DNA from: Pseudomonadota bacterium
GTDB taxonomy: Bacteria; Planctomycetota; UBA8108; UBA1146
NCBI GenBank assembly: GCA_017859655.1
Contig: JAFMMO010000001.1
Span: 1 to 49,138, forward strand
Direction of reading: 5' to 3'
Length of the DNA: 49,138 bases
Below the pieces are notes generated by a model. That model saw only the letters and a list, made by a program, of their open reading frames with translations. It had not been told where the DNA came from and made no database searches. The translations under genes were made by a program, and so were the position numbers. This document shows, piece by piece, positions 542-34,003 of the stretch (position 1 is the first letter of the stretch; each line of letters begins with the position of its first letter).

Positions 542-2686
542 ATGCTGCGTCCGTCCCCCCTGACTCTCCCCTCGTGCCGACCGCTGGCCGCGATGCTCAT
601 CGTCATCGCGCTCGTCGTCGGCTCCTCCGCGATCGTCCGGGCCGACAGCTGCGCGGGACCGAACGAGGAGACCGGCTCATGCTCGCTCTCCCTGCGTGAC
701 TACCCGGGAGAGTACCCCTACGCGATGACCGTGGCCGGGACGACCCTCTATGTCGCCGACCTGCTCACCGGGCTCTACTACACCTTCGACGCGACCGACA
801 TCACGGCGCCGGGGGCCCTGGTGCCGCAGGCGGGCCCCATCGGTCCCGCCACCTACACGGGTCTCGCCCACAACACCTCGGACGGCCAGCTCTACTGGCT
901 CGTGGAGGGGAACCTCGGCGCCACGCTGGTGAAGAGCAACCTCGACGGGATGGTCGACACCCTGACCGCCCTCACCCCTCCCACCGCCGGCGGCTTCCTC
1001 TCCGGTCTCGCCTACGCGCCCGACACGAACAGCTTCTGGACCTTCGACATCCTCAACGACCAGCTGCTCAGCTTCTCGGCGGACGGGACCTTCGATCCGG
1101 CCGCGACCCTCGCGAGCCCGGGGACCTCCGCCTTCGGCGGTGCCTCCTACGGGCTCGGCCTGACCATGGTCCCGGCCGACAACCTCATCCCGACGGAGGA
1201 CTTCGACCTCCATGTCGCGGTCGGCTTCCCGAGCGACCTCCGCGCCCAGCGCGTCGAGCGGCTCGATCCGGACTCCCCGGCGAGCCCCGCGTTCGGAATC
1301 TCCTACGACCTCGACTCCTCGAACGACCTCACCGGCTGGATCACCGGCCTCGCCTACAACCCGGCGAACAACTCGCAATTCGTCGCGGACGCGGACCTGA
1401 TGCGCATCGTGGAGGTCCCGTCCCCCACCCTCGCCGTCGGCTCGGTCACCGACCTCGTCTGCCTCGCGCAGCCGAACGATGACGTCGTCCTCACCTGGAG
1501 CCTCCCCTCCCTCTCCACCTACACGAGCGTGGCGATCACCCGGGATGGCGAGCCGCTGACGAACACCACGCCGAGCACCCTCACCTTCACCGATCCCGAT
1601 GTCGCGGCGGGGGCACACCGCTACGGGATCCGCGTCTTCACCTCCGGGGGCGCCGAGCTGCCCGAGCGGACCTGCGATGTGATCGTCGGGTTCGGACGGC
1701 TCCTGAACGCCCGGACCCACGACGGCAGCGGCGCCTTCGCCGCGACGGTGATCGAGAGCACCGGGCAGGTCCTCGTCGCCGACCTCGCGGGCGGCGCAGC
1801 CCACCTCTACCCGAAGACCCTGAGCGGCGCGGGCGTGGCGCTGAGCAGCCCCTTCGCCGGACAGACCTCGGGAGTCGCCTGGAACGCCACCGACGACACC
1901 CTCCTCTGGCATGACGGAGCGGGGCAGCTTCAGAAGACCGACCTCCTCGGAAACGCCATCGGCACCGCGACGACCCTGTTCCCCCTGCCGGCCGAGCCGA
2001 CCGGGGACATCTCCTACTCCGCAGGGACCGGCTCCTACTACGGGATCAGCATCTCCGGCACCGAGTACTTCGAGTTCCTCGAGACCGGCGAGATCATCGC
2101 AACCTGCGCCTTCCCCGCCGTCGACGGTGAGGCGGGGGGCTTCGGCCAGGGGATCGCGGTGGCCACCAACACCACCCCGGTGATCCTGGACGCCCCGATC
2201 GGCCGGGCCTCCGGCGGAAAGACGGACCGGGTCTCCCGCCTGATCGACTGCGTCGACTCCGGGCTCTTCTACGAGACCGTCCCGACCACGCTGAGCGGCG
2301 CGATCGCCGGGATCGCCTGGACCCCGGCGGGCTCGAACGGCTTCGCCTCCGAGTACCTGATCGGATACGACACGAACACGATCTACGAGGTCTCCCTCGA
2401 CCTCTCATCGGTGGGCGATGACTTCCAGCGGGGAGACACCGATGGCGATGGCAGCCGCAACCTCGGAGACGCGGTCTGGCTGCTCCTCTATCTCTTCAAT
2501 GGCGGAGAGCTCTCCTGCCTCGACGCGGGGGATGCCAACGACGACGGCACCGTGAACACCGCGGATGTGATCACGATCCTGAACTTCCTCTTCCAGGGCG
2601 GGATCCCGATCGCGGAGCCCCTGGAGTGCGGATCGGATCCCTCCATCGACGCGCAGGTCTGCGACACCTACGAGTTCTGCGGCTAG
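542..2686 (+). CDS. secreted beta-propeller-repeat protein with Fn3-like module and C-terminal dockerin-like module
   Basis: ATG preceded by AAGGAAG. Signal peptide MLRPSPLTLPSCRPLAAMLIVIALVVGSSAIVRA/DS. Recurrent blade-like strands (TLYVADLLTGLYYTFD, DGQLYWLVEG, NSFWTFDILNDQLLSF, QVLVADLAGG, TLLWHDGAGQLQKTD). A Cys-flanked Fn3-like segment (DLVCLAQPNDDVVLTWS...HRYGIRVF...TCDVIV) is also present in both S8 proteases. C-terminus is GDTDGDGSRNLGDAVWLLLYLFNGG...C...GDANDDGTVNTADVITILNFLFQGG. Stop TAG. Confidence 0.85.
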   Translation: MLRPSPLTLPSCRPLAAMLIVIALVVGSSAIVRADSCAGPNEETGSCSLSLRDYPGEYPYAMTVAGTTLYVADLLTGLYYTFDATDITAPGALVPQAGPIGPATYTGLAHNTSDGQLYWLVEGNLGATLVKSNLDGMVDTLTALTPPTAGGFLSGLAYAPDTNSFWTFDILNDQLLSFSADGTFDPAATLASPGTSAFGGASYGLGLTMVPADNLIPTEDFDLHVAVGFPSDLRAQRVERLDPDSPASPAFGISYDLDSSNDLTGWITGLAYNPANNSQFVADADLMRIVEVPSPTLAVGSVTDLVCLAQPNDDVVLTWSLPSLSTYTSVAITRDGEPLTNTTPSTLTFTDPDVAAGAHRYGIRVFTSGGAELPERTCDVIVGFGRLLNARTHDGSGAFAATVIESTGQVLVADLAGGAAHLYPKTLSGAGVALSSPFAGQTSGVAWNATDDTLLWHDGAGQLQKTDLLGNAIGTATTLFPLPAEPTGDISYSAGTGSYYGISISGTEYFEFLETGEIIATCAFPAVDGEAGGFGQGIAVATNTTPVILDAPIGRASGGKTDRVSRLIDCVDSGLFYETVPTTLSGAIAGIAWTPAGSNGFASEYLIGYDTNTIYEVSLDLSSVGDDFQRGDTDGDGSRNLGDAVWLLLYLFNGGELSCLDAGDANDDGTVNTADVITILNFLFQGGIPIAEPLECGSDPSIDAQVCDTYEFCG
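2417..2683 (+). other. dockerin-like double Ca-binding-loop module (domain within CDS 542..2686)
   Basis: Two D-x-[DN]-x-D-G-x(5)-D-x(3)-L-x(2)-LF-x-GG repeats separated by a conserved Cys, then a Cys-containing tail. The same layout occurs at 18348-18596 and 32170-32427. Confidence 0.65.
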
Positions 2687-14387: not shown

Positions 14388-17300
14388 GTGCCGGGGGAAG
14401 AGCCCGGCATGAGCCCACTCGGGTTCCCGAATCACGCCAACGGCACTGGCTCCCCATCGCCCCGGGAGCGCGCCGGGGCCCTGCGGTCCCCGCGCCCTGC
14501 GCGATCGATCCACCTCCAGCTGCAGCCTTGCGCGGTCGTCCTGCCCCCCGCGGTGCTCCCCGTCCTGACGGTGCTCCTCCTGACGGTGCTCCTCCTGACG
14601 GTGCTCCTCCTGACGGTGCTCGCCGCCCCCATCGCTCGCGCCGCCGAGCCGACCGCGCCCTCCGGCGTCGAGGGGGTGATCCTCGATCGCGGGCGATCCC
14701 TCACCCTGGTCCTCGATCCCACCGTCGTCTTCGTCCGCGTCCTTCCCGCCGCCGACGGGCGCGGGAGCTCGGATCCTCTCCTCGAGCTGCAGCGCCTGAC
14801 CGACGATCCCCTCTTCGAGGCCCCGACTCCCGAGGACATCCTCGAGTACCCCGGGCTCCTGCGCCTGCGCTTCCACGAGGAGACCACGGTCCCGGCGCGC
14901 CTCCTCGCCTTCGAGCGCCTCGCCGGGCTGCCCCGAACGGAGTGGGCCAGCGGCAACTTCCAGGACCCCGCCCGACCGTGGGAGCGGGCCTGGATGATCC
15001 CCACCCCGCAGATCGTCGTCTCCCTCGATGAGAGCGCGGCGAACCGTCGACTCGCCGAGCTTCTGGCCCTCACCGATCTGCCGGGCGGCGCCCGCCTCAC
15101 CCTCGACCGCGCGCTCCATGGGCCGCGACCGACCTTCGTCCTGCACACCGGCGCCGCCGCGCTCGATTCGTTTCGGGTCGCAGAGGTGGTGGCGGGACTC
15201 CCGGGGGTCGTCGCGGCGCAACCCGAGTTCATCCGTCGCCTCGAGTCCCACGGCACCCCCAGCGACACCCTCTTCCTGACCCAGTGGAACCTCCAGAACA
15301 CCGGCCAGCACGGAGGGACACCCGGGGCCGACATCCGGGCCGTTCCTGCGTGGGACATCGAGACCGGCTCCAGCGCGATCACCGTTGCGGTCATCGACGA
15401 AGGGGTCGATCACAGCCACCCCGACCTGGCCCCCCAGATGGTCGCGGGGTACGACGCGGTGACGGTCCCGACCGGCGGGCCGGGCTCCTCGCTGCCGGGG
15501 CAGGCGGACCCGGAGGATGCCCACGGGACCGCATGCGCCGGGATCATCGGCTCGAACGGGAACAACGGCATCGGCACCGCCGGAGTCTGCTGGAGCGTCT
15601 CCATCCTCCCGATCCGGATCGGGTTCGGGGAGTTCTGGACTCAGGACTCGTGGATCGCGGACGGCATCTCCGCCGCCGTCTCCCTCGGCGCGGATGTTCT
15701 CTCCAACTCCTGGGGGGGCGGGAGCCCCACCCCCATCGTCGATGCCGCGATCACCGCGGCGGTGACGAGCGGCCGTGGGGGCCTCGGCTGCCCGAGCGTC
15801 TTCTCCAGCGGCAACGCGGACATCGGGGAGATCGCCTATCCCGCCTCCCACGACCTGACCATCGCGGTCGGCGCGACCAGCCCCTGCGACGAGCGAAAGA
15901 GCCCGACCTCCTGCGATGGGCAGTGGTGGTGGGGGTCCCAGTTCGGTCCGGAGCTCGACCTCGTCGCTCCCGGTCCCTTCGTCACCACGACCGACAACTC
16001 CGGAGGGGCCGGCTACGCCGCCGGCAACTTCGTCGAGTTCTCCGGGACCTCCGCCGCCTGCCCCCATGTGGCGGGGGCCGCGGCGCTCGCCCTCTCGCTG
16101 AACCCGAGCCTCTCGGCCGCCGAGCTCCGCGACCTGCTCCAGTCGAGCGCGCGGGACGAGGTCGGCCCGCCCGCCGAGGACATCCCCGGCTGGGATCCCT
16201 ACATGGGCCACGGGCGCCTCGACCTGCTCCAGTTGCTCCTCTCCATGGGAGGAGGAACCCTCCCTCCCGGCGACTTCAGCTGCACGGCCGAGGGAGAGGA
16301 CGCCCTCCTCGAGTGGACGAACCCGGAGGTCTACGACCAGCTCCTCATCACCCGAAACCAGGTCCTCATCGCCAGCCTCCCCGGAGACGCGACCTCCTAC
16401 CTCGACCTCGCACCCGGGCTCGGGCTCCAACGCTACAAGGTGGCAGGGGTCACGGCAGCCGGCACGAGCCCCCGCACCGCGTGCGCCTCGATCGTCCTGG
16501 GGACCCCGACCGACCTCGTGTGGAGCCCGGCGCAGGGCTCGGTGCCGGGAGGGGCTCCGATCGCGGAGGCGCTCGTCTCCCTCGGGCGCGTCCCGGTGCT
16601 CGTCTCCGACCTCGCGGACGCCGGCGCCCTCGAAGCCTACGAGACGATCTGGGTGAACCTCGGGGTCTTCAACACCTCGGGGCCGAGCGGCAAGCATGTC
16701 CTGACCGCTTCGGAGGGGCAGGCCCTCGACGGGTACCTCGCGGCGGGGACCCCGGAGTCCCCGAGGTTCCTCTACCTCGAGGGCGCGGACACCTGGTTCT
16801 TCGACCCCCCCACGACCCTCCACTCCCGCTTCGGCATCGTCTCCAACTGCGATGGCTTCCCGACCCCGCAGCTCTCGATGATCTCCGGACTGCCGGGACC
16901 GCCCTGTTCCTTCGACACGCTGCAGTACGGCTATGTGGGAGAGGACGCGTTCATCGACCATCTGGAGGTGGCCCCGGGGAGCGGAGCGCAGCGGATCCTC
17001 GAGAATGATCCGCCCATCTTCGGCGTCGCGATCTCTCGCCAGTCGACGGGTCACGCGACGATCGGAGCGAGCTGGGAGCTGGCGGGCGTCGAGCCGGGCG
17101 GGAGTGATGTGCGCGACTTCGTCGCTGCGGCGCTGACCTGCTGGGGTGTCTCCTTCGATCTGGACCCGCACCCCACTCCGGTGTCGATCAACTCCTGCGT
17201 GGCGGTCAGCTCGACGAGTCAGCTGAGCTGGAACAACGGCGATCTGTACGACGAGATCCACGTGCTGCGGGACGGGGACCTGATCGCGGTCCTGCCGGGA

Positions 17301-18599
17301 GACGCCGGTGTCGCGATCGATCCGGTCGCCCACTCCGGCGTCAATGTCTACGAGGTGATCGGGATCTTCAGCGGGCTCCCGGCGGCCCCCGCCGTGTGCA
17401 GCGTCGACCACTCCGTGCCGAGCAACACGATCGAGGTCCCGCAGCTGCTCGTCGAGATCGGCGCGGCGATCGACCTCCCGGTCCTCGCTCACCACTCCCT
17501 CCCTCTGGAGGGATTCACGATCTCGGTCGTCTATGATCCGGGGGTCCTCGACCTCACGCAGGCGACCATGGCGGGAACCGAGCTCGAGGCGGCGGGCGCG
17601 GGGTACTTCGCTCCGCAGATCGATCCGGTGAACGGCGTCATCACCATCGCCGCCGTCATCGATCCCGTCCCCCCGGTGACCGGATCGATTCCTCCCGGAG
17701 ATGATCACGTGATCGTCCGACTCCTCGGTCAGCTCGCCCCTTCGGCGACCGTCGGCGCCAGCACGTCCGTCGAGATTCCGCAGAGCGTGGGCAGCCCGGC
17801 GGTGACCTCGATCTTCCTGCAAGGAGGAATGGTCGGCCACGAGCCCCAGAGGGTTTCCGGCTCGGTCACCGTCGTCGAGAATCTGGACCTCAGGCTCGAG
17901 GTCGCGGGGGACACCTCACAGCCGGGGGGAGGCGCCTCGACCCCGGTCCTGCTGACCACCGACCGCCCCCTCGTCGCCTACAGCTTCGGCCTCCCGTGGT
18001 CCGCCGATCAGCTCGCGCCGACCGGCGCCACCCTCGTGGGGACCGTCGGGGAGTCCGCCGCCTTCGCCCTGGTGACCATCGACCCCGTGGCGGAGGCGAT
18101 CACCGCTTCGGTGATCATCGACACGAGCGAGCCCTACGACCTGGTGATCCCCCCCGGAGCGGACTACCTGGCCCTGCAGGTCGAGTGGCTCGTCGACGCG
18201 CTGCTCCCGGCTCCCGCGGAGATCGTCATCCCGGTCGCGTCCGGTCTCGGCTCGCCACCGGTCGCGGTCGCGTTCACCGGCGCGAACAACCAGAATGTCG
18301 TCCCCCTGACCCTCGCCGGGACGATCCTCGTGCTGCCGAATCAGCGCTTCTTCCTGCGGGGAGATGCGAACGACGACGGAACGATCACCCTCGCCGACCC
18401 GATCGCACTGCTCTCCCATCTCTTTCAGGGCGTGCTCATCCCCTGCGAGGATGCAGGAGACGCGAACGATGATGGGATGGTCGACATCTCGGACGCGGTC
18501 TTCGTTCTGCAGCACCTCTTCACCGGAGGTCCCCCCCCCGAGCTCCCGTGGCCCGTCGCGGGGAGCGACCCGACGGCCGACACGCTCGGCTGCAGCTGA
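14388..18599 (+). CDS. giant secreted subtilisin-like (S8) serine protease with Fn3-like module, ~220-aa shared module, two cohesin-like modules and a C-terminal dockerin-like module
   Basis: Catalytic triad motifs AVIDEGVDHSHPDL (Asp), HGTACAGII (His) and GTSAACPHVAGAAAL (Ser). Long hydrophobic N-terminal signal. The C-terminal modules are listed as separate features. GTG start at 14388; the alternative ATG at 14409 (MSPLG) has a G/A-rich stretch upstream. Confidence 0.9.
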   Translation: MPGEEPGMSPLGFPNHANGTGSPSPRERAGALRSPRPARSIHLQLQPCAVVLPPAVLPVLTVLLLTVLLLTVLLLTVLAAPIARAAEPTAPSGVEGVILDRGRSLTLVLDPTVVFVRVLPAADGRGSSDPLLELQRLTDDPLFEAPTPEDILEYPGLLRLRFHEETTVPARLLAFERLAGLPRTEWASGNFQDPARPWERAWMIPTPQIVVSLDESAANRRLAELLALTDLPGGARLTLDRALHGPRPTFVLHTGAAALDSFRVAEVVAGLPGVVAAQPEFIRRLESHGTPSDTLFLTQWNLQNTGQHGGTPGADIRAVPAWDIETGSSAITVAVIDEGVDHSHPDLAPQMVAGYDAVTVPTGGPGSSLPGQADPEDAHGTACAGIIGSNGNNGIGTAGVCWSVSILPIRIGFGEFWTQDSWIADGISAAVSLGADVLSNSWGGGSPTPIVDAAITAAVTSGRGGLGCPSVFSSGNADIGEIAYPASHDLTIAVGATSPCDERKSPTSCDGQWWWGSQFGPELDLVAPGPFVTTTDNSGGAGYAAGNFVEFSGTSAACPHVAGAAALALSLNPSLSAAELRDLLQSSARDEVGPPAEDIPGWDPYMGHGRLDLLQLLLSMGGGTLPPGDFSCTAEGEDALLEWTNPEVYDQLLITRNQVLIASLPGDATSYLDLAPGLGLQRYKVAGVTAAGTSPRTACASIVLGTPTDLVWSPAQGSVPGGAPIAEALVSLGRVPVLVSDLADAGALEAYETIWVNLGVFNTSGPSGKHVLTASEGQALDGYLAAGTPESPRFLYLEGADTWFFDPPTTLHSRFGIVSNCDGFPTPQLSMISGLPGPPCSFDTLQYGYVGEDAFIDHLEVAPGSGAQRILENDPPIFGVAISRQSTGHATIGASWELAGVEPGGSDVRDFVAAALTCWGVSFDLDPHPTPVSINSCVAVSSTSQLSWNNGDLYDEIHVLRDGDLIAVLPGDAGVAIDPVAHSGVNVYEVIGIFSGLPAAPAVCSVDHSVPSNTIEVPQLLVEIGAAIDLPVLAHHSLPLEGFTISVVYDPGVLDLTQATMAGTELEAAGAGYFAPQIDPVNGVITIAAVIDPVPPVTGSIPPGDDHVIVRLLGQLAPSATVGASTSVEIPQSVGSPAVTSIFLQGGMVGHEPQRVSGSVTVVENLDLRLEVAGDTSQPGGGASTPVLLTTDRPLVAYSFGLPWSADQLAPTGATLVGTVGESAAFALVTIDPVAEAITASVIIDTSEPYDLVIPPGADYLALQVEWLVDALLPAPAEIVIPVASGLGSPPVAVAFTGANNQNVVPLTLAGTILVLPNQRFFLRGDANDDGTITLADPIALLSHLFQGVLIPCEDAGDANDDGMVDISDAVFVLQHLFTGGPPPELPWPVAGSDPTADTLGCS
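14565..14624 (+). repeat. 15-bp in-frame tandem repeat (3 perfect + 1 diverged copy) encoding the signal-peptide hydrophobic core
   Basis: CTGACGGTGCTCCTC occurs three times (14565-14609), then CTGACGGTGCTCGCC. A degenerate copy lies just upstream. Translation is ...LTVLLLTVLLLTVLLLTVLAAP. Confidence 0.9.
17430..17880 (+). other. cohesin-like module 1 (domain within the S8 protease)
   Basis: IEVPQLLVEIGAAIDLPVLAHHSLPLEGFTISVVYDPGVLDLTQATMAG...GVITIAAVID...VIVRLLGQL...SGSVTVV follows the type-I cohesin pattern: a G-x-V-x-[VL]PV strand, then a [FY]-x-[ILV]-x-YDP-x-[VL]L strand, and a terminal G-x-[IV]-x-V. Confidence 0.55.
17889..18335 (+). other. cohesin-like module 2 (domain within the S8 protease)
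   Basis: LRLEVAGDTSQPGGGASTPVLLTTDRPLVAYSFGLPWSADQLAPTGATLVG...AITASVIID...YLALQVEW...AGTILVL has the same strand pattern as module 1 but is more diverged. Confidence 0.45.
18348..18596 (+). other. dockerin-like module (domain within the S8 protease)
   Basis: FFLRGDANDDGTITLADPIALLSHLFQG...C.DAGDANDDGMVDISDAVFVLQHLFTGGPPPELPWPVAGSDPTADTLGCS. Confidence 0.65.
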
Positions 18600-20143: not shown

Positions 20144-20446
20144 CTCGCAAGGACGCAAGCCTATCAATCGAAAGGACTTGTGGAGATTCGTCCGCGAGCC
20201 GCCTGCCGCTTCCGAACCCGGGGTCCGCGGGGATACCTTCCCCATGCAACCCAGCCCCCCCCTCCGGGATCGGACCTCACCATGTGTTACTCTCCTGAGA
20301 GCCCGCGTTGCTCCTCCACCGCCCCCGCCCGCGGCTCGTCCGCGCGCTCGGGGAGCCGGAGCGCCCGGATCATTCCCCTGCGACCGTCGCGGGCGGACTC
20401 CGGGGTGTCGTCCCCGTCCCCGACCCGAAGGAGCGCGAGCCCCGCA

Positions 20447-21064
20447 ATGGATCCCCGAACCCCCGACCCCTCCCCGGAGGAGAGCGCGGGGGAGCTCCTC
20501 CCGCTCACCGACCGCGACGACGCCACCCTGGCGCGCGCGGCGGGACAGGGGGACGAGGCTTCCTTCCGCACTCTCATCGAGCGCTACGAGCGCCTCCTGT
20601 TCAAGATCGCCCTGCGCAAGGCGGGAAACCGGGCCGACGCCGAGGACATCGTTCAGGATGTCTGCATGCACGCGTGGCGCTCCCTTGCGAAGATCCGGGA
20701 TCCGCAGGCCTTCCTCGGCTGGCTCATGGCGATCGCCCACAACCGCGCCAACCGCTACTGTGATCGCCGCCGGCGAAAGGTCGTCGTCCTCGACGAGGCG
20801 CGGCGGACCCTCGAGGAGCGCGCCCGCGCCCGCGCCGAGCGCGCGGAGGCGGATGAGGACGGCGGGGAGCTGGTCCGCCGGCTCCCGGATGAGATGCGCC
20901 TCGCCCTCAGCTGGAAGTACCTCGACGGGTGCTCCTACGAGGAGATCGGCGAGCGCCTCGACATGAGCTTTCACCAGGTCGACTACCTGCTCCGCCGAGC
21001 CAAGGCGGCGCTCCGTCGTGAAGTCGAGCGCGTCGAGCGCTCCGGAGAGGAGGGACTCGCATGA
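20447..21064 (+). CDS. ECF-type RNA polymerase sigma factor (sigma-70 family, group 4)
   Basis: Region 2 (FRTLIERYERLLFKIALRKAGNRADAEDIVQDVCMHAWRSL) and region 4 (LRLALSWKYLDGCSYEEIGERLDMSFHQVDYLLRRAKAALR). ATG at 20447 with GAAGGAG upstream. The stop overlaps the next start (ATGA at 21061-21064). Confidence 0.9.
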   Translation: MDPRTPDPSPEESAGELLPLTDRDDATLARAAGQGDEASFRTLIERYERLLFKIALRKAGNRADAEDIVQDVCMHAWRSLAKIRDPQAFLGWLMAIAHNRANRYCDRRRRKVVVLDEARRTLEERARARAERAEADEDGGELVRRLPDEMRLALSWKYLDGCSYEEIGERLDMSFHQVDYLLRRAKAALRREVERVERSGEEGLA

Positions 21065-21855
21065 TGTCCGCTCTCGAATCCTGCCGCTGGGTCCGGACCC
21101 AGCTTCCCCGCTTCCTCGACGGGGAGCTCGCCCCCGACCTCGAGACCCGCGTGTCCGGGCATCTCGACCGCTGCGCCGCCTGTCGGGCCGAGCTCGCCGT
21201 GGAGCGGGATCTCCTCCTCGACACCCTCGAGCTGCTCTCCCCCACCCGGCCGCCGCAGGGGATGGTCGACGCGGTGATGGCGCGGATCGCGGAAGAGGCG
21301 GCCGGCGCCCCCGCCCCGACCCCCGTCATCCCCGTCCTGAGGCCGCGCAGGAGGGCTTTCGGCCCCTCCCTGGCCGCGGCCGCCCTCCTCGCGTTCGTCG
21401 TCTGGGCGATCTCGGGCGACAATGGAGGAGGAGCCCCCTCGGTCGGACCGAGCGGGCCCCTCGCGATGCTCGAGAGCGGCGGTCCCGGCCCCACGGTCGA
21501 CGGCCCCGGCCTCGGCGATCTGGGAACGGCGATCTCCGAGGAGGAGGCCCTCTTCGGCGCGGAGAACCGGAGCGAGTCGACGACGATCGAGCTCGTCCGC
21601 TTCGATGTGAACGCGGACGAGCAGTTCGACCAGCGCGACCTCGATGCCCTCAACCGGCATCTCACCGAGGGGATCGCGATCGCCTGCCCGGCCGCCGCGG
21701 ATGTCGACGAGGATGGCTGGCTGACGCCTCAGGACTCGATCCGGGCCTTCCAGCACTTCTCCACCGGAGAGATCGAGGTCTCCTCGGCGATCAGCCGCAC
21801 CGTCGAGTACGACATCGGGGGTCCCCTCCACTGCTCGTACCAGGCCTGTCCCTGA
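21061..21855 (+). CDS. membrane-spanning anti-sigma factor (zf-HC2 / HxxxCxxC type) with extracytoplasmic dockerin-like module
   Basis: Translationally coupled to the ECF sigma gene. N-terminal HLDRCAACRAEL motif. One TM segment (FGPSLAAAALLAFVVWAI). C-terminal DVNADEQFDQRDLDALNRHL ... DVDEDGWLTPQDSIRAFQHF. Confidence 0.8.
   Translation: MMSALESCRWVRTQLPRFLDGELAPDLETRVSGHLDRCAACRAELAVERDLLLDTLELLSPTRPPQGMVDAVMARIAEEAAGAPAPTPVIPVLRPRRRAFGPSLAAAALLAFVVWAISGDNGGGAPSVGPSGPLAMLESGGPGPTVDGPGLGDLGTAISEEEALFGAENRSESTTIELVRFDVNADEQFDQRDLDALNRHLTEGIAIACPAAADVDEDGWLTPQDSIRAFQHFSTGEIEVSSAISRTVEYDIGGPLHCSYQACP
21601..21780 (+). other. dockerin-like double Ca-loop module in the anti-sigma factor
   Basis: Two D-x-[ND]-x-D-x(5,6)-D-x(3)-[LF]-x(2)-[HF] repeats separated by a Cys-containing linker (IAIAC). 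Confidence 0.5.
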
Positions 21856-21973: not shown

Positions 21974-23500
21974 GTGGGAGTGAGCCCCGTGTCCCGACGA
22001 TCGATCCTTCTCGCCGTCACCGCCCTCGCCGGCGTCGCCCTGCTCGTGGGAGAGTCCTCCCCGGCCGCGGCGGAGAGACCCGCCGTCCGCGTCCCGGGGG
22101 ATGAGTCCGCGCCCCCGAAGGCCGACGATGCGCCGTCCGGAGACGAGGCGAGCGAGAGCGCGGAGGCGCTCGCCCTCCTCTACACGATCCACAACGAGGG
22201 ATACATCGAGCCCTGCGGCTGACCGAAGAAGAAGGTGAAGCTGGGCAGTTTGGCCCGGCGCAAGACGTACCTCGACAGCGTGGCCACCGAGGGGATCGAT
22301 CCGGTCCTCGTCGATGGCGGAGACTGGCTCTTCGAGCTCGGCAACGTCCGGATGAACAAGTTCGCCGAGCGTCAGCTGCGCCAGAAGGCGGAGCTCATCG
22401 TCGACGCCTACAACGAGTTCGGGTACGACGCCGCCGCGATCGGGGAGCACGACCTCGCCTTCGGGATCGAGTTCGTCGAGGCGCTCGCCGCGCGCGCGCG
22501 CTTCCCCTTCCTCTGCGCGAATCTCCTCCGGGACGGCGCCCCCATCTTCCCCGGCTCGACCGTCATCGAGCGGGCCGGGTTCCGCGTCGGCGTCATCGCG
22601 ATCCTCATGGAGCTCCCCGACCGCTTCCTCGAGAAGTACTCCCCGGGGCTCACCGTCGGGAGCCACCGGGAGGCGCTCGCCCGCGAGCTGGAGAAGCTCG
22701 GGGATGAGGTCGACACGGTGGTCCTCCTCGGCCATGTCGAGCAGACCGACATCATGGAGATCGCGGACACGGTGAAGGGGATCGACTTCATCCTCCACCC
22801 CGCGGGGTTCTCCGGGAACGAGCCGACCTGGATCAACGACGGCGAGGAGATCACCGAGCGGAACGGGAAGGTCCTGCTGAAGATCAGCGGTCAGGGCTCC
22901 ACCGTCGGCCGGCTCGACCTCTACCCCTCGGAGCGGGGCGCGCCCTGGCACAACTTCGCCGAGGAGCCGCAGGCGACCGGGAACCTCTACTTCCCGACGC
23001 TGACCCGACTCGCGAGCCACATCGGGAAGCACCCCGGGATCGACGCCCTCGTGAACGAGTTCCTCAAGGGGACCCGCTACCGGGGCTTCACCGAGGAGGA
23101 CCTGACCTTCGTCCCGGCGACCGACTACCTGACCGCCGACACCTGCAGCGTCTGTCACCTTGAGCAGGCGGAGTTCTGGCGCGGCACGGGACACGGCAAG
23201 GCCTACCAGACCCTCGTCGATGCCGAGAGCCAGTTCCGCTACGACTGCATCTCCTGCCACGTGCTCGGCTACGGCGAGACCTTCGTGGATGCCCACGCCG
23301 TGGGTCCGTACAAGGATGTCCAGTGCGAGTCGTGCCACGGGAAGAACCCGCAGCATCCGACCGCCCCGGCGGACCACCCGTGGCCCAAGGTGAACACCGA
23401 GACCTGCTGGTCCTGTCACGACCCGAGGGTCACCCGTGTCCCGTTCGATGTGAGCGCCGGCCTGCCGGCGGTGACCTGTCCGCCCCTGAAGCGGAACTGA
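21974..23500 (+). CDS. exported degenerate 5'-nucleotidase/metallophosphoesterase-like protein fused to a tetraheme cytochrome c; candidate selenoprotein with in-frame TGA (Sec) at 22220-22222
   Basis: ORFs 21974-22222 and 22235-23500 share one frame and are separated only by the TGA. The sole signal peptide (SRRSILLAVTALAGVALLVG) is upstream of the TGA, while the four CxxCH heme sites that need export are downstream (TCSVCH, DCISCH, QCESCH, TCWSCH). Alignment to the downstream paralog: YTIHNEGYIEPCG*PKKKVKLGSLARRKTYL versus YSVNVTGEIDVCGCKRKKVRQGSITRRGSYI, so the TGA falls on a conserved Cys. Confidence 0.7.
22240..22259 (+). promoter_or_regulatory. SECIS-like hairpin downstream of the in-frame TGA
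   Basis: GCUGGGC AGUUUG GCCCGGC: a 7-bp stem (one G-U pair) with a 6-nt apical loop containing GU. The stem starts 17 nt after the UGA and the loop about 24 nt after it, which is within the spacing generally described for bacterial SECIS elements. Confidence 0.5.
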
Positions 23501-23595
23501 TCCTGAGAAGAGAGACCCCGCCGGTCCGCCCTCCGGGAGCGGGCCCGTGCACAGTGAACGAGCCCCGTGCCCCGCACGGGATGGAGGCCCAAGGG

Positions 23596-25113
23596 ATGAA
23601 CCCGACCCGCGACAACGGTCCGACCCGCCCCCCGCTCTGGGTGGCGCTCGCCCTCCTCCTCGGAGGACTGCTGCTGCTGACCCTCGGTGACGAGCCACGC
23701 GCCGAGGCGGCGATGGGACCGCTGGTGATCCCCGCGAGCGTCGATGACGACATTCGCAACGTCTTCGTCGTCTACTCCGTGAACGTGACGGGGGAGATCG
23801 ATGTCTGCGGCTGCAAGCGCAAGAAGGTCCGCCAGGGCTCGATCACGCGCCGCGGCAGCTACATCCGTCAGGCCCGTCACCTGCACCCGTCGCTCGTCGC
23901 CCTCGACGCGGGGAACACCCTGGTCGGCCCGGACGACAAGCGCACCACCGACCTCGAGCTCGCCCAGACGATGGAGAAGGCGAAGGTCCTGATCGAGTCG
24001 TACAACCGTCTCGGCTACGCCGCGATGGGAATCGGGAACTTCGACCTCCTCCTCGGGATGGAGCGCCTCCGCGAGCTCCAGAAGATGGCGAGCTTCCCCC
24101 TGATCTGCGCGAACCTCGTCGACGCCGAGTCGGGAGAGCCGGTCTTCCCCCCCACCCATGAGGTGGAGTCGGGGGGAGTGCGGATCGGCCTGCTCGGACT
24201 CACCCTCGAGGGGATCCCGCAGTACTACCTCGACAAGGCCTCCCCGGATCGCTCCCTGCGCACCCGGGACGTGATCGAGACCGCGCGGCAGTACGTGCCG
24301 GCGCTCGCGGAGCGGAACGATGTGGTCGTGGTCTTCTCGATCAACGATGTCGACCGGAACCGGGAGCTCGCCGAGCAGGTGGAGGGGATCGACTTCCTCG
24401 TCGATCCGCTCATCGAGCTCGGCAACCACAAGCTCTGGGTCGATGACGACAAGCTCATCGAGTCGAAGGCCGACACGAACATCCTGCGCATGGACGCCCA
24501 GGGGGCCCGCGTCGGGACCCTCGACATCTTCGTCCGGCCGAAGCCGAGCCGCCCGATCGTCGATGGGTCCACGGGAGAGGTCCCTCCCGGTCGCAGCGAG
24601 TACTGGTTCGAGAAGATCTCCCTCGAGCCGCACATGCTCGAGGACCCCGAGATCGTCGCCCTCGTCGATGCCTATCGGGCCCAGGCGAGCATCGTCGATG
24701 TCGCCAAGCTGCCGCCGATGCCCCACAAGGACCGTTACCTCACCGCGGACACCTGCAAGGCCTGCCACACCGAGCAGTACGACTTCTGGAAGCGCACGAC
24801 CCACGCCGACGCCTTCGCGAGCCTCGAGGAGACCGGCGATCAGTGGCGCCAGGACTGCATCCCCTGCCATGTCCTCGGCTACGGTCAGGCGTTCCTCGCA
24901 CCGGCGGACGCCGAGCCGTACAAGGATGTCCAGTGCGAGAACTGCCACGGCCTCAATCCCCAGCACCCGCTCGACCCGAAGGGGAACCCGTGGCCGAAGA
25001 TCGAGGAGAAGAGCTGCCTCGTCTGCCACAACAAGGAGCAGACCCGGAGCGACTTCCACTTCTTCAAGGAGAAGCCGAAGATCGCGTGCCCGCCGCTTCA
25101 GCGGACGCCCTGA
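23596..25113 (+). CDS. exported degenerate 5'-nucleotidase/metallophosphoesterase-like protein fused to a tetraheme cytochrome c (Cys-containing paralog)
   Basis: ATG at 23596 with GGAGG 9 nt upstream (alternative ATG at 23581). Signal/TM segment LWVALALLLGGLLLLTLG. The motif GEIDVCGCKRKKV replaces the DxH metal motif. DAGNTLVG and GIGNFD are remnants of phosphoesterase motifs II/III. Four CxxCH sites (TCKACH, DCIPCH, QCENCH, SCLVCH). Confidence 0.85.
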   Translation: MNPTRDNGPTRPPLWVALALLLGGLLLLTLGDEPRAEAAMGPLVIPASVDDDIRNVFVVYSVNVTGEIDVCGCKRKKVRQGSITRRGSYIRQARHLHPSLVALDAGNTLVGPDDKRTTDLELAQTMEKAKVLIESYNRLGYAAMGIGNFDLLLGMERLRELQKMASFPLICANLVDAESGEPVFPPTHEVESGGVRIGLLGLTLEGIPQYYLDKASPDRSLRTRDVIETARQYVPALAERNDVVVVFSINDVDRNRELAEQVEGIDFLVDPLIELGNHKLWVDDDKLIESKADTNILRMDAQGARVGTLDIFVRPKPSRPIVDGSTGEVPPGRSEYWFEKISLEPHMLEDPEIVALVDAYRAQASIVDVAKLPPMPHKDRYLTADTCKACHTEQYDFWKRTTHADAFASLEETGDQWRQDCIPCHVLGYGQAFLAPADAEPYKDVQCENCHGLNPQHPLDPKGNPWPKIEEKSCLVCHNKEQTRSDFHFFKEKPKIACPPLQRTP

Positions 25114-26580: not shown

Positions 26581-26710
26581 GGCTGCAGCTCCTTCTCTGG
26601 TTCCGGTTTCCCAAGGAGAGACTCACCGATCGGAGTGGGGAAGGGAAGCCCCTCCGGTGCCCATCCACCCGCTCTCCGGTTAGGGTGCGCGCTCCGAAAC
26701 CGGAGGAATC

Positions 26711-29401: not shown

Positions 29402-29568
29402 CGGCTCGCGATCCGCCGACGCGGGGGCAGAGGGACGGACGAGGGGTCGGGGGGGCCGATGGGCGGAAATCCCCGCCCCCTGCGGTACGATGGAGAGCGC
29501 GGACCTCCGCCGGCTGGGGGGTGTCCCCCGCCGGCCGCTCGCACCCGCCTTCTGCCGAGGAGCCCCCG

Positions 29569-32430
29569 ATGTCCCTCACTCCCGCCCACTCCCGAAGAGC
29601 GGCAGCGACCGCGCGCGGGGCGGCCGGAGGGCGGACGCTGCTGCCTCTGCTGGGGGTGCTCATCCTGCTGGCTTCGCCGGTCGTGGCGAACGACCCGTCC
29701 TCGGCGAGGGGGGCATCCGCCCCGCTCCCCCGGAGCTCGGTCCATGGACTCCGGATCCCCGATCGACTGGCGCTCATCATGGAGGAGCCGGGTCCCCGGC
29801 TCCCCGACTCCCTTGTGTCCACCCTCGCCTCCCATCGGAGTCGGGCCACCCTCGCGGAGGGGCACCCGCGCCTCTGGTTCATCGAGCTCCCCGCGGAGGA
29901 AGCGCCGGTGCAGCACCGCGCTCAGCACCGTGCACAGCGCCGGGAGCTCCTCCGGGAGCTCCGAGCCCTCCCCGAGGTCCGGTGCATCGGTGAGGTCCAT
30001 GAGAACTCCGCTGCGGTCGGTCTCCGCGAGCCGGTGCTCGTGATTCCGCTCCCGGAGCTCCTCGTCGAGCTCTCGTCGGGAGCATCGAGGGAGGAAATCG
30101 CGGCGCGACTCGCGGCGATCGGGCTCGAGCACGTCGCCCACTTCCCCTCCCTCCGGGGAGGCATCCTCCACCTCCGGCATGGAGGTCTCCCCGCGGAGAG
30201 CGCCGCTCTGGCCGCGCAGATCTCCGGTTGGGACGGGATCCACAGCGCGGAGGTGAACGTCCTCGAGGGCTTCCCCCCCCTGAGCATTCCGAACGACCCT
30301 CTCTTCCCGCAGCAGTGGTCTCTGAGGAACACGGGCCAGGGAGGGGGCTGGACCCCCGGCGCCGATCTGAACGCTCCCTCCGCGTGGGACCTCGCCACCG
30401 GCGACCCCTCGGTGACCATCGCGATCATCGATGAGGGGGTCGATGTCACGCACCCCGACCTCGCCTCTCGGGTGTTGCCGGGGCACGACGCCACCGACCA
30501 GCCCTCCCCCGCCGCGATCCCCGGGAACTGCGCCCCCGCGGACGAGCACGGCACCGCGTGCGCGGGGATCGCGGCCGCCGCCGGGAACGACGGCGCCGGC
30601 ATGACGGGTGTCTGCTGGAACGCCTCGATCCTGCCGGTGCGGGTGGGCTACGGCGCCTACTGGTCCCAGCTCTCGTGGCAGGTCGATGCGATCACCTGGG
30701 CCGCGGATCAGGGCGCGGACATCCTCTCGAACTCCTGGGGGAGCTCGATCCCCTCCGCGTCGGTCCGCTCCGCCATCGAGTACGCGACGACGAGCGGCCG
30801 CGGCGGACTCGGCGCCGTCGTCCTCTTCGCCGCGGGAAACAGCGACGGCCCGATCGTCTACCCCGCGAAGCACCCCGCCGCGATCGCGGTCGGAGCGAGC
30901 AGCCCCTGCGACGAGCGCTGCAGCCCGGCCTCCTGCGACAACGAGGTCTTCTGGGGGAGCTGCCACGGCCTCGAGCTCGATCTCGTCGCCCCCGGAGCGG
31001 CGCTCGTGACCGCCGACAATGTCGGTCCCGCGGGGGGTGGCGCCGGGGACTACCTCTTCGGCTTCAACGGGACCTCCGCCGCCTGCCCTCATGTGGCGGG
31101 CGCGGCCGCGCTCCTGCTCTCCCTCCGCCCCGACCTCGATGCGGTGCAGGTGCGGAGCCACCTCATCTCCGCCGGACGCGACCTTGTCGGAGTCCCGGCC
31201 GAGGACACCAGCGGCTGGGATCCGTACATGGGCTGGGGGCGTCTCGATCTCCGCCTCCTCCTCGAGTCCGCGCTCGGGCCCGCTCCCCCCGGGAGCCTGA
31301 CCTGCACGCCGAGCGGCACCGCCGTCCTCCTCGAGTGGACCGTCCCGCCCGGTGTCTCCTACGACCACTACGAGCTGCGGCGAAACGGAGATCTCATCGC
31401 CGCGGTCCCTGGCGACGCCCTGCTCCACACCGAGCCCGCGCTCCCCCCCGGGAGCCATCAGTACGCTCTCCGCGGCGTCGCCTCGGGGGTGCGCACGCCG
31501 ATGGCGACCTGCACGACCTTCGTCTCCGGCGGAGCGAGCGATCTCGTCTGGACCCCTCCGACCGCGGTCGGTCCGGTCGACGGCGGGGCGGCGATCTCCG
31601 CCGCGCTCATCGCGAACGGCCGTACCCCCGTGGCGACGGAGGACCTCCTCTCCGTCGGTGACCTGGACCCCTTCTCCCGGATCTGGGTCACCCTCGGCAC
31701 GAGCCCCGCGAAGCATGTCCTGAGCGAGCCCGAGGCGGCGCTCCTCCTCGACTACCTGACGAACGGCGTCGGAGGCTCGAGCCTCTACCTCGAGGGCGCC
31801 GACACCTGGGTGGAGGATCCCGTGACGAGCCTCCATCCGCTCTTCGGGATCGACGGGTCCTTCGGGGGCCTCGCCGACCTCGACACGATCACCGGCGTCG
31901 ACATCGGCGTCGCCGATCTCTCCGGACTCTCCATGGACTACGACGGGGAGAACAGCTCCATCGACCGACTGATCCCCGTCCCTCCTGCGGCGACGCTGTT
32001 GCGGAACGGACCGACGAGCGTCTACGACGTGGCGATCCACCGGGAGACTATCGAGTATCGCACCATCGGGGCCAGCCTCGAGTTCGGGGGGCTTCAGGAG
32101 AGCGGGGGAGCGACCCGAGCCGCAGTGATGGCGGAGCTCCTCGCGGCGCTCACCGGACCCTCGACCCCGTTCCTGCGCGGGGATGCGGACGGCAGCGGAT
32201 CGATCGATGTCGCCGACGCGATCCTGATCCTGGAGCAGCTGTTCCTCGGAGGCGGCAGCAGTTGCCTCGACGCGCTCGATGTGAACGACAGCGGCAGCCT
32301 GAACATCGCCGATGCCATCGCGGCCCTCGGATACCTCTTCTCCGGCGCCGCTCCCCCCGCTCCGCCCTTCCCCACCCCGGGCCCGGATCCGACCGACAAC
32401 GACCCGCTCGACTGCGCCTCCTGGCCCTGA
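29569..32430 (+). CDS. secreted subtilisin-like (S8) serine protease with Fn3-like module, ~220-aa shared module and C-terminal dockerin-like module
   Basis: GAGGAG precedes the ATG at 29569. Signal peptide RTLLPLLGVLILLASPVVA. Triad motifs IAIIDEGVDVTHPDL, HGTACAGIAAA and GTSAACPHVAGAAAL. Same post-catalytic architecture as the 14388 gene but without the cohesin-like modules. Confidence 0.9.
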   Translation: MSLTPAHSRRAAATARGAAGGRTLLPLLGVLILLASPVVANDPSSARGASAPLPRSSVHGLRIPDRLALIMEEPGPRLPDSLVSTLASHRSRATLAEGHPRLWFIELPAEEAPVQHRAQHRAQRRELLRELRALPEVRCIGEVHENSAAVGLREPVLVIPLPELLVELSSGASREEIAARLAAIGLEHVAHFPSLRGGILHLRHGGLPAESAALAAQISGWDGIHSAEVNVLEGFPPLSIPNDPLFPQQWSLRNTGQGGGWTPGADLNAPSAWDLATGDPSVTIAIIDEGVDVTHPDLASRVLPGHDATDQPSPAAIPGNCAPADEHGTACAGIAAAAGNDGAGMTGVCWNASILPVRVGYGAYWSQLSWQVDAITWAADQGADILSNSWGSSIPSASVRSAIEYATTSGRGGLGAVVLFAAGNSDGPIVYPAKHPAAIAVGASSPCDERCSPASCDNEVFWGSCHGLELDLVAPGAALVTADNVGPAGGGAGDYLFGFNGTSAACPHVAGAAALLLSLRPDLDAVQVRSHLISAGRDLVGVPAEDTSGWDPYMGWGRLDLRLLLESALGPAPPGSLTCTPSGTAVLLEWTVPPGVSYDHYELRRNGDLIAAVPGDALLHTEPALPPGSHQYALRGVASGVRTPMATCTTFVSGGASDLVWTPPTAVGPVDGGAAISAALIANGRTPVATEDLLSVGDLDPFSRIWVTLGTSPAKHVLSEPEAALLLDYLTNGVGGSSLYLEGADTWVEDPVTSLHPLFGIDGSFGGLADLDTITGVDIGVADLSGLSMDYDGENSSIDRLIPVPPAATLLRNGPTSVYDVAIHRETIEYRTIGASLEFGGLQESGGATRAAVMAELLAALTGPSTPFLRGDADGSGSIDVADAILILEQLFLGGGSSCLDALDVNDSGSLNIADAIAALGYLFSGAAPPAPPFPTPGPDPTDNDPLDCASWP
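32170..32427 (+). other. dockerin-like module (domain within S8 protease 2)
   Basis: FLRGDADGSGSIDVADAILILEQLFLGGGSSCLDALDVNDSGSLNIADAIAALGYLFSGAAPPAPPFPTPGPDPTDNDPLDCASWP. Confidence 0.65.
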
Positions 32431-32560
32431 TCCCCCGGGAACCGATCCCCACCCCGCCGGGATCACCGGGGCTGCCGGGCGCTTCGTGCTATCCTCCGCG
32501 CGGAGGCGCCGGACCGGCAGGCGCCCCTCCGGCCGTCCCCCTCCCCGGTGCGAGGTCTCC

Positions 32561-33988: not shown

Positions 33989-34003
33989 CGGCGGGCGGTG
34001 GCG

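Follow-up and report, generated by a model that had tools for sequence, protein, structure and literature searches.

Can a secreted protease be an enzyme and a scaffold at the same time? To our knowledge, almost everything known about cohesin-dockerin pairs, the best-understood bacterial "Lego" for extracellular enzyme complexes, comes from cellulolytic Firmicutes. The question is raised here by a DNA stretch of 49,138 nucleotides from an uncultured bacterium of the GTDB lineage Planctomycetota (assembly GCA_017859655.1, contig JAFMMO010000001.1, positions 1 to 49,138 of the forward strand; called the window in the following). One of its genes, at 14388-18599, encodes an S8 family protease for which an initial annotation had suggested two cohesin-like modules and a dockerin-like end on the same polypeptide. 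We find that both segments of ~150 amino acids (aa) are divergent but genuine cohesins in homology and in fold, and that they are followed by a dockerin. By analogy with the ScaN-type adaptor scaffoldins, in which two cohesins (Coh) precede a dockerin (Doc), and with the ScaO/ScaP peptidase scaffoldins, we propose with a probability of roughly 0.55 that the protein acts as an enzyme-bearing adaptor scaffoldin in a non-cellulolytic, proteolytic assembly at the cell envelope.

Results

Two divergent cohesins in an S8 protease

BLASTP identifies the two modules as paralogues (28% identity, expect value (E) 7e-9). Of the two Pfam families expected from the initial annotation, Dockerin_1 was detected on the isolated tail of the protein with 27.1 bits, but Cohesin (PF00963) gave no direct match to either module of the window, even at E up to 1. 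A word-indexed homologue search with the two-module region likewise found nothing. When 1.84 billion representative sequences were searched exhaustively with HMMER, 234 proteins reached E <= 1e-3, and 37 of these E <= 1e-10. Among 86 shorter homologues scanned, Pfam Cohesin was matched in 17, with a best E of 3e-8. The gathering cut-off of this family is 24.1 bits, and scores of 26.0 bits were reached by the full-length orthologue P0001 (residues 1110-1179, corresponding to module 2), 25.9 bits by the orthologue P0152 and 32.5 bits by P0208, a more distant S8 relative. A profile of 54 diverse family modules, with the modules of the window as its first two rows (A3), was then compared with all PDB sequences. 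It returned 20 chains, 16 of which are cohesins; the best matches were 4uyp_A (E 2.8e-4), 5lxv_A (4e-4), 1g1k_A (4e-3) and 1aoh_A (0.02), and about 120 of the 151 positions were aligned for the best of them. On these comparisons, the homology of the window modules to known cohesins is transitive and at the level of profiles, not direct.

The fold agrees with the profile. Cohesins are flattened beta-sandwiches (jelly rolls) with nine strands and a length of about 140-150 residues. With the 54-module alignment as input, AlphaFold2 modelled module 1 with a predicted local distance difference test score (pLDDT) of 96.5 and a predicted template modelling score (pTM) of 0.90. In a Foldseek comparison of this model with the PDB, all 50 matches listed were cohesins of types I, II and III, with a best E of 1.4e-8. 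Their template modelling (TM) scores, normalised to the query, were mostly ~0.7-0.77, with a maximum of 0.77. The matches include Ruminococcus flavefaciens ScaC, Acetivibrio cellulolyticus ScaB Coh6, Clostridium thermocellum CipA, OlpA and OlpC and C. cellulolyticum CipC, and also cohesins from A. fulgidus and C. perfringens, which are non-cellulosomal. Module 2 reached a pLDDT of 92-98 within a model of the three C-terminal modules.

We assign both segments to the cohesins because relatives match Pfam Cohesin, orthologues pass its threshold, the family profile finds solved cohesins and the predicted fold is that of a cohesin. The limits drawn initially (17430-17880 and 17889-18335) were refined only slightly by the hidden Markov model (HMM) of the family (Table 1). 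Membership in another beta-sandwich family such as Big, CARDB or Fn3, which the initial annotation had named as part of the outcome that would overturn its reading, could appeal to the missing direct Pfam match. It was effectively ruled out by the profile, the orthologue scores and Foldseek, and is extremely improbable: the fold matches listed are cohesins throughout, the profile retrieves cohesins almost alone, and the Pfam threshold is passed or nearly reached by orthologues and by 17 of the 86 relatives. When all six frames of the window were scanned with the family cohesin HMM, two cohesins only were detected, both in the S8 protease. Between the predicted strands 6 and 7, the cohesin modules of the family share a nearly invariant loop, DxxPPFxGxxIPPG.

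The dockerin tail

The tail of the protease is a two-repeat dockerin with Ca loops, according to sequence matches and predicted helices. Its two Ca-loop/helix repeats are GDANDDGTITLADPIALLSHLF and GDANDDGMVDISDAVFVLQHLF, with the Ca loops GDANDDGTITLAD and GDANDDGMVDISD, and thus the tail has both of the tandem ~22-residue segments of a dockerin, in which an EF-hand-like Ca loop (D-x-[DN]-x-[DN]-G ... D at position 12) precedes a helix. The score for Pfam Dockerin_1 (PF00404, cut-off 22.9 bits) given above applies to the isolated tail; in a scan of the full protein it was just 14.4 bits. A phmmer search of the tail against the PDB returned the solved type I dockerins 2y3n_B (E 1.0e-3), 1daq_A and 2mte_A (both 1.2e-3), with both repeats covered. 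In the AlphaFold2 model of the Coh-Coh-Doc region (mean pLDDT 93.6, pTM 0.65), dockerin helices lie at residues 332-343, 350-353 (short) and 363-375, and the pLDDT of 10-residue blocks is 84-98. The module assignments of the initial annotation, two cohesins and a dockerin end, are thereby supported.

The tail departs from classical dockerins by a conserved, family-specific extension, PPxPFPxxGxDPTxDxLxC. The second repeat and the extension lie between a linker Cys (aa 1353) and a C-terminal Cys (aa 1402). Both residues are invariant in an alignment of 29 sequences, which suggests a disulfide clasp of the dockerin tail.

A portable C-terminal cassette

Modules and tails were mapped by local jackhmmer on the 150 best representatives of the family. 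In 131 of them, one to four cohesins, as a rule, are followed by a dockerin. The most frequent architectures are C-C-D (56 proteins) and C-D (54), followed by C-C-C-D (12) and C-C-C-C-D (6); three proteins are more complex and 19 carry cohesins only, many of these being cut by contig ends. The tail ends at most 15 residues from the C-terminus in 130 of 132 proteins. The parts that precede the cassette vary and comprise S8 proteases as well as PKD, FG-GAP, TIG, CarboxypepD_reg and matrixin domains (Pfam, in the 86 shorter homologues, 32 of which also match Dockerin_1). In about a quarter of the proteins the cassette is preceded by just ~30 residues, i.e. a signal peptide, and dozens of relatives are stand-alone proteins consisting of a signal peptide, one to three cohesins and a dockerin. 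Varied N-terminal parts combined with a constant C-terminal position indicate that cohesin(n) plus dockerin is a portable C-terminal unit.

All named members are proteins from metagenome-assembled genomes (MAGs) of Planctomycetota, judged by their source names. Their annotations read hypothetical, "dockerin type I repeat-containing" or "VCBS repeat-containing", and none is labelled a cohesin. By the same source names, the family appears to be restricted to or centred on Planctomycetota MAGs. A word-indexed search with the 54-module profile gave just 9 short fragments, and a single-protein scan of GTDB genomes gave 8 loci only, the nearest from the Planctomycetota MAG_451_bin-10 (52% identity). 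No conserved stretch of 7-10 columns was found in the Coh-Coh-Doc alignment.

Outside the window, a subfamily of cohesin-only proteins (P0056, P0097, P0102, P0105 and P0139) shows the layout signal peptide, one cohesin, PKD-like region, hydrophobic segments, a lipobox-like CGGGGGG and a conserved ~50-aa tail. As judged from this layout, these proteins could be membrane anchors for dockerin-bearing proteins. Several dockerin-tailed open reading frames (ORFs), one with a cohesin, lie within a few kb of each other on L008 (6191-6451 and 14507-14767; from the same MAG as L003) and L005 (2102-2818 and 4833-5093), which are contigs of Planctomycetota or of uncultured bacteria. These two contigs suggest that dockerin-tailed genes are numerous per genome.

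Proposed assembly and alternative functions of the cassette

The C-terminal 390 residues constitute a Coh-Coh-Doc cassette, and in the model that we favour the protein would be an "adaptor scaffoldin with its own enzyme", the enzyme being an active, Sec-exported protease of the subtilisin family from an uncultured Planctomycetota bacterium. Cohesins bind dockerins with high affinity and in dependence on Ca2+ through their 8-3-6-5 face. Its dockerin would plug, in a Ca2+-dependent manner, into a cohesin of another cassette protein or of a membrane-anchored cohesin protein, and each of the two cohesins would recruit a dockerin-bearing protein, for example the paralogous S8 protease or the 714-aa secreted protein of the window (Table 1). 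The outcome would be a multi-enzyme assembly, at or close to the cell envelope, that degrades proteins and not cellulose. As candidate partners, the window encodes four dockerins and two cohesins.

Several observations weigh against this adaptor model. Apart from the lack of a direct Pfam Cohesin match, cohesin 2 and the dockerin are only ~5 residues apart, with essentially no linker, while cellulosomal modules are usually joined by linkers; the pair may therefore be a fixed structural dyad. The pTM of 0.65 of the three-module model neither favours nor excludes a contact in cis. Furthermore, that the dockerin genes lie close together in the window argues only weakly for a functional link, because the housekeeping genes among them are equally syntenic in relatives, and proximity by itself is thus no argument.

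The short spacing leads to a different explanation, in which the last cohesin packs on its own dockerin, either as a structural unit resembling the type II X-Doc dyads or in an auto-inhibitory manner. The cassette would then be a single C-terminal unit that serves attachment or stability, and the protein would be the client of a complex rather than a scaffold. The gap between the last cohesin and the dockerin has a median of 1 residue in 131 proteins, the tail is almost always terminal, and a single cohesin precedes the dockerin in 54 of the 150 homologues. The three-module model aligns along the CipA Coh9-X-Doc fragment of C. thermocellum, which together with a cohesin dyad of A. cellulolyticus is its best Foldseek match, and we infer that its pTM is above the expectation for three free domains, the largest of which makes up 0.38 of the chain. 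In addition, dockerin-adjacent cohesins behave as a distinct sequence class: 127 of 131 have their nearest neighbour from other proteins within this class, and 93 of 99 upstream cohesins have theirs among upstream cohesins. This positional signal persists in pairs below 40% identity (0.86 vs 0.27) and vanishes below 30%, so that part of it, perhaps most, may be orthology; a clean split of dockerin-adjacent and upstream cohesins into functional types was downgraded to a tendency for this reason. The X module, moreover, has a different, Ig-like fold, and packing in cis leaves the upstream module 1 unexplained, which would still be a candidate receptor. We consider this explanation rather unlikely.

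The initial annotation had suggested self-assembly as a possibility. In a homotypic version of it, the dockerin of one chain would bind the cohesins of another copy in trans, giving head-to-tail, branched protease arrays. Cohesins and dockerin do reside on one chain, and the architectures listed above, in which nearly all cohesin-bearing relatives also have a dockerin, would permit daisy-chaining. As read from the sequence, the repeats of the dockerin show a near-symmetry (GDANDDG loops, xHLF helices) like that of dockerins with a dual binding mode. In characterised scaffoldins, however, resident dockerin and cohesin specificities differ, by which self-aggregation is avoided; CipA, for instance, combines type I cohesins with a type II dockerin. 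The identity of just 28% between the two cohesins also suggests different partners. Thus, homotypic arrays are an unlikely arrangement.

A further alternative is that the cohesin-fold modules bind a ligand other than a dockerin, such as a glycan, a peptide substrate or an envelope component, and that the tail is a Ca-binding stabiliser or a tag for export or anchoring. Non-cellulosomal cohesin folds with other or uncharacterised partners are represented, among the Foldseek matches, by glycosidase modules of C. perfringens (2jh2, 2vo8, 2w1n), the conserved loop of the family modules is without a stated counterpart in classical cohesins, and the C-terminal extension with its invariant Cys pair is specific to this family. 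The C. perfringens cohesin modules, however, do bind dockerin-like partners. The strict co-occurrence of cohesin and dockerin across the family also argues against such a function, as do several dockerin-only proteins in one genome region, a pattern of receptor and ligand. This alternative has a very small chance of being correct.

The S8 protease and its catalytic domain

The features of the protease and of the other proteins discussed here are compiled in Table 1.

Table 1 Features of the S8 protease and of related genes in the window. Positions refer to the window; HMM, hidden Markov model; ECF, extracytoplasmic function.
Feature	Positions	Strand	Basis or remark
S8 protease with Coh-Coh-Doc tail	14388..18599	+	ORF, 1403 aa from GTG start
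Hydrophobic region, putative signal peptide or signal anchor	14508..14642	+	long, ends with ARA before AEP; read from sequence
Peptidase_S8 catalytic domain	15372..16166	+	Pfam PF00082, aa 329-593, E 9e-50
Asp337 in VIDEGVD	15396-15398	+	S8 triad motif
His379 in AHGTACAG	15522-15524	+	S8 triad motif
Ser555 in GTSAACPH	16050-16052	+	S8 triad motif
First ~75-aa cysteine-bounded module	16275..16496	+	conserved in paralogous protease
~220-aa module common to both S8 paralogues	16497..17147	+	sequence comparison
Second copy of the ~75-aa cysteine-bounded module	17187..17411	+	33% identical to the module of the paralogue, E 2e-7
Cohesin module 1 (aa 1015-1164)	17430..17879	+	family HMM boundaries, AlphaFold2 model, Foldseek, family profile
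Cohesin module 2 (aa 1170-1317), adjoins dockerin	17895..18338	+	family HMM boundaries, paralogy to module 1, three-module AlphaFold2 model
Dockerin, last 83 residues	18348..18596	+	Pfam Dockerin_1, solved dockerins, AlphaFold2 model
Dockerin of S8 protease, tail HMM	18336-18596		120 bits
Paralogous S8 protease without cohesins	29521..32430	+	homology, tail HMM
Dockerin of paralogous S8 protease, tail HMM	32158-32418		105 bits
714-aa secreted protein with dockerin tail, family unassigned	542..2686	+	tail HMM
Dockerin of 714-aa secreted protein, tail HMM	2414-2665		85 bits
ECF-type sigma factor (Sigma70_r2, r4_2)	20180..21064	+	overlaps start of anti-sigma gene
zf-HC2 anti-sigma factor, one transmembrane segment, dockerin-like domain	21061..21855	+	Pfam, tail HMM
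Dockerin of anti-sigma factor, tail HMM	21580-21807		32 bits

The G+C content at third codon positions of the ORF is 0.90, the level of real genes in the window, which has a G+C content of ~70%. P0151, an NCBI protein that is 99% identical to the window protease and annotated as "MAG: S8 family serine peptidase [Planctomycetota bacterium]", begins at the ATG at 14409, seven codons 3' of the GTG. The N-terminus is predicted to be a Sec signal peptide, possibly a signal anchor. Within its hydrophobic core, positions 14563-14621 form a perfect 15-bp tandem repeat of 3.9 copies that codes for LLLTV repeats. P0151 carries one repeat unit fewer, so that the two proteins differ by one 15-bp unit, a copy-number polymorphism in the signal peptide.

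The Asp-His-Ser triad is complete in the window protease, and the same motifs are conserved in the paralogous protease. With the subtilase fold family and the order of the triad both present, the ORF codes for a catalytically plausible, presumably secreted S8 protease. No Pfam match was obtained for the ~75-aa modules, for which the earlier label "Fn3-like" was not confirmed, for the ~220-aa module or for the N-terminal pro-region. The ~75-aa module has the pattern C...L.W...I.R.G..I...Y.D...G...Y.V...C and is present in all three secreted dockerin proteins of the window; the ~220-aa module is also found in many relatives besides the two S8 paralogues.

Other dockerin proteins and the anti-sigma factor

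A scan of the window for dockerins with a tail HMM derived from the family found four (Table 1): those of the two S8 proteases, of one protein without known family and of an anti-sigma factor. The other dockerin proteins listed in the initial annotation are thus real, with the start of the paralogous protease now placed at 29521 rather than 29569. With Dockerin_1, the tail of the paralogue scored 21.2 bits and that of the 714-aa protein 22.8 bits, both just under the cut-off; the copy of the anti-sigma factor scored 27.1 bits. The region that the initial annotation had described as common to both S8 proteases was recovered as well: the paralogue is 46% identical over 723 aa to the window protease (aa 203-916), a span that takes in the pro-region and the catalytic domain as well as one ~75-aa Cys-bounded module and the ~220-aa module. 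The dockerin tails of the two proteases are 49% identical, and the paralogue has neither the second ~75-aa module nor the two cohesin modules.

The dockerin of the anti-sigma factor lies C-terminal of the single transmembrane segment and thus, by prediction, on the extracytoplasmic side. It is kept in the orthologous loci (L001, 17385-17609; L002, 16726-16983; L003, 14314-14562) and is without the C-terminal extension of the family. The specificity of type I dockerins is set by positions 10 and 11 of each repeat. At these positions, the three secreted proteins have small or hydrophobic pairs (LA/IS, VA/IA and LG/TA) and the anti-sigma factor has QR/PQ. From these residues, the three secreted dockerins probably form one shared specificity group and the anti-sigma dockerin a distinct one.

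A more far-reaching reading would connect the assembly with gene regulation. Coh(n)-Doc would be a Planctomycetota-specific, disulfide-clasped cassette that connects proteases and adhesin-like proteins in a branched network at the envelope, and cohesin-only proteins anchored in the membrane would tether this network. It would be read out by the anti-sigma factor, which would join it through its conserved dockerin and would control the ECF sigma factor through the assembly state or through cleavage by the scaffold-borne S8 protease. We regard this extended scheme as decidedly unlikely. It would amount to transmembrane signalling based on cohesin and dockerin, conceptually parallel to the RsgI/SigI sensing of C. 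thermocellum, with a protein-protein docking module as the sensor. In a shallow search of papers that mention anti-sigma, dockerin and cohesin together, no dockerin-bearing anti-sigma factor was met among those listed, which deal with RsgI-type sensors carrying CBM (carbohydrate-binding module) or PA14 domains.

Genomic neighbourhood

The orthologous loci L001 (45% identity) and L002 (42%) retain the gene order of the window, with genes for an M3 peptidase, peptidyl-prolyl isomerases, a helicase, an amidase, the S8 protease, a BFD-like protein, a threonine aldolase, the ECF sigma factor, the zf-HC2 anti-sigma factor and multihaem cytochromes. A functional operon, considered on the basis of the clustered dockerin genes, was rejected because synteny with relatives (42-45% identity) extends over the entire block, with helicase, amidase, threonine aldolase, PolX and ThiI among its genes. 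Directly downstream of the sigma/anti-sigma pair, two adjacent genes at 22235-25113 encode multihaem cytochromes (Cytochrome_C554, MtrC/MtrF-like motifs); this pair is conserved in L001 and L002. Between the cytochromes and PolX, a block at ~25198-34000 contains a gene for a 460-aa protein on the minus strand, a gene for a PhoD-like phosphatase (26711-29401) and the paralogous S8 protease. The block is absent from the otherwise syntenic L002, and is therefore a lineage-specific insertion. In Pfam scans of the 21 predicted proteins of the 49-kb window, no glycoside hydrolase (GH) or CBM domain was found.

Discussion

The Planctomycetota possess a large family of highly divergent cohesins that is mostly unannotated and located on proteases and adhesin-like proteins. 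If these modules bind as expected, they would provide clonable components with which the "planctosome" idea of protein-degrading complexes, discussed below, could be examined in planctomycetes of the sea and of fresh water. They would also supply synthetic biology with new orthogonal cohesin-dockerin pairs, and the dockerin-bearing anti-sigma factor might link the assembly of complexes to gene regulation. Should binding fail, the family would instead illustrate how a cohesin-dockerin pair was fixed as an intramolecular structural unit.

Comparison with known systems

The initial annotation overstated the novelty of the protein, as the ScaO/ScaP proteins already combine S8 peptidase, FN3, cohesin and dockerin modules and an assembly termed the "planctosome" has already been proposed. 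ScaO/ScaP are "unconventional" scaffoldins of Acetivibrio cellulolyticus, Clostridium alkalicellulosi, Bacteroides cellulosolvens and A. mesophilus (PMC3413522, PMC6780208, PMC11557425); the A. mesophilus protein WP_128706311.1, for example, has an S8 peptidase, three FN3 repeats and a C-terminal Coh1-Doc1 bi-domain unit. Like them, the window protein unites an S8 peptidase, cohesins and a dockerin in one secreted polypeptide and has the composition of a peptidase scaffoldin. The differences are considerable. ScaO/ScaP belong to Bacillota with true cellulosomes, whereas the window protein belongs to the Planctomycetota and is encoded among proteins free of GH and CBM domains. Its cohesins are too divergent for Pfam, its dockerin has a putatively Cys-clasped extension and follows the cohesin without a linker, and galactose-oxidase and Rhs modules are missing. 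Its ~75-aa modules may correspond to the FN3-type spacer modules of ScaO/ScaP. The shared architecture, which is compared here by description, may have arisen by convergent domain shuffling.

Adaptor scaffoldins with a signal peptide followed by Coh-Coh-Doc, such as ScaN2-4 of C. alkalicellulosi and ScaC of R. flavefaciens (PMC6780208), have the same module order as the C-terminal 390 aa of the window protein and as its stand-alone relatives. In the family described here, known so far from its sequences, the cassette is in contrast attached as a unit to enzymes and other domains. The best matches of the three-module model are CipA Coh9-X-DocII (3kcp, 4fl4) and the type II cohesin dyad of ScaA (3l8q), with E ~1e-12 over 362-389 columns. 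Both are built of beta-sandwich modules in tandem, and in CipA a dockerin forms the end. The query-normalised TM scores of only 0.29-0.33 reflect a different domain arrangement, however, and sequence identity is 10-14%. The neighbour of the dockerin is an Ig-like X module in CipA and a cohesin in the window protein. With respect to the cellulosome sensu stricto, the proteins encoded in the 49 kb lack the defining GH and CBM domains.

Outside the Bacillota, the Cloacimonadota "Ca. Stygibacter" encodes dockerin-bearing S8 and C25 peptidases, from which a cellulosome-like, polypeptide-degrading complex was inferred (PMC8542988). This system resembles ours in being non-Bacillota, MAG-derived and equipped with a dockerin-tagged S8 peptidase. 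Its cohesins, however, are not located on the protease; they are found on a separate, non-catalytic scaffoldin of 3,755 aa with CBMs and a C-terminal domain of the type IX secretion system type.

A related proposal is the peptide-degrading "planctosome", hypothesised by Andrei et al. 2019 (ISME J, PMC6461901) for freshwater Planctomycetes (Nemodlikiaceae). Its parts are an LTD-anchored protein that carries P-domains and a single cohesin, an adaptor of the order Doc-HYR-Coh, and metallopeptidases of the M12B and M14 families with dockerins (PMC6461901). Both models are bioinformatic, and in both cases planctomycete cohesin and dockerin proteins without a link to cellulose are proposed to assemble peptidases at the cell surface. 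In our case, by contrast, the putative scaffold is itself an S8 serine protease with a Coh-Coh-Doc cassette, and none of the planctosome components (LTD anchor, Doc-HYR-Coh, M12B, M14) was found among the proteins of the 49 kb scanned.

In conclusion, the design is already known in kind, from protease scaffoldins in cellulosome-forming bacteria and from the proposal for planctomycetes. New in the present system are the phylum in relation to the protease scaffoldins, the divergence of the cohesins, the portable, linker-less C-terminal cassette, the dockerin extension with its presumed Cys clasp, and a dockerin that is conserved on an anti-sigma factor.

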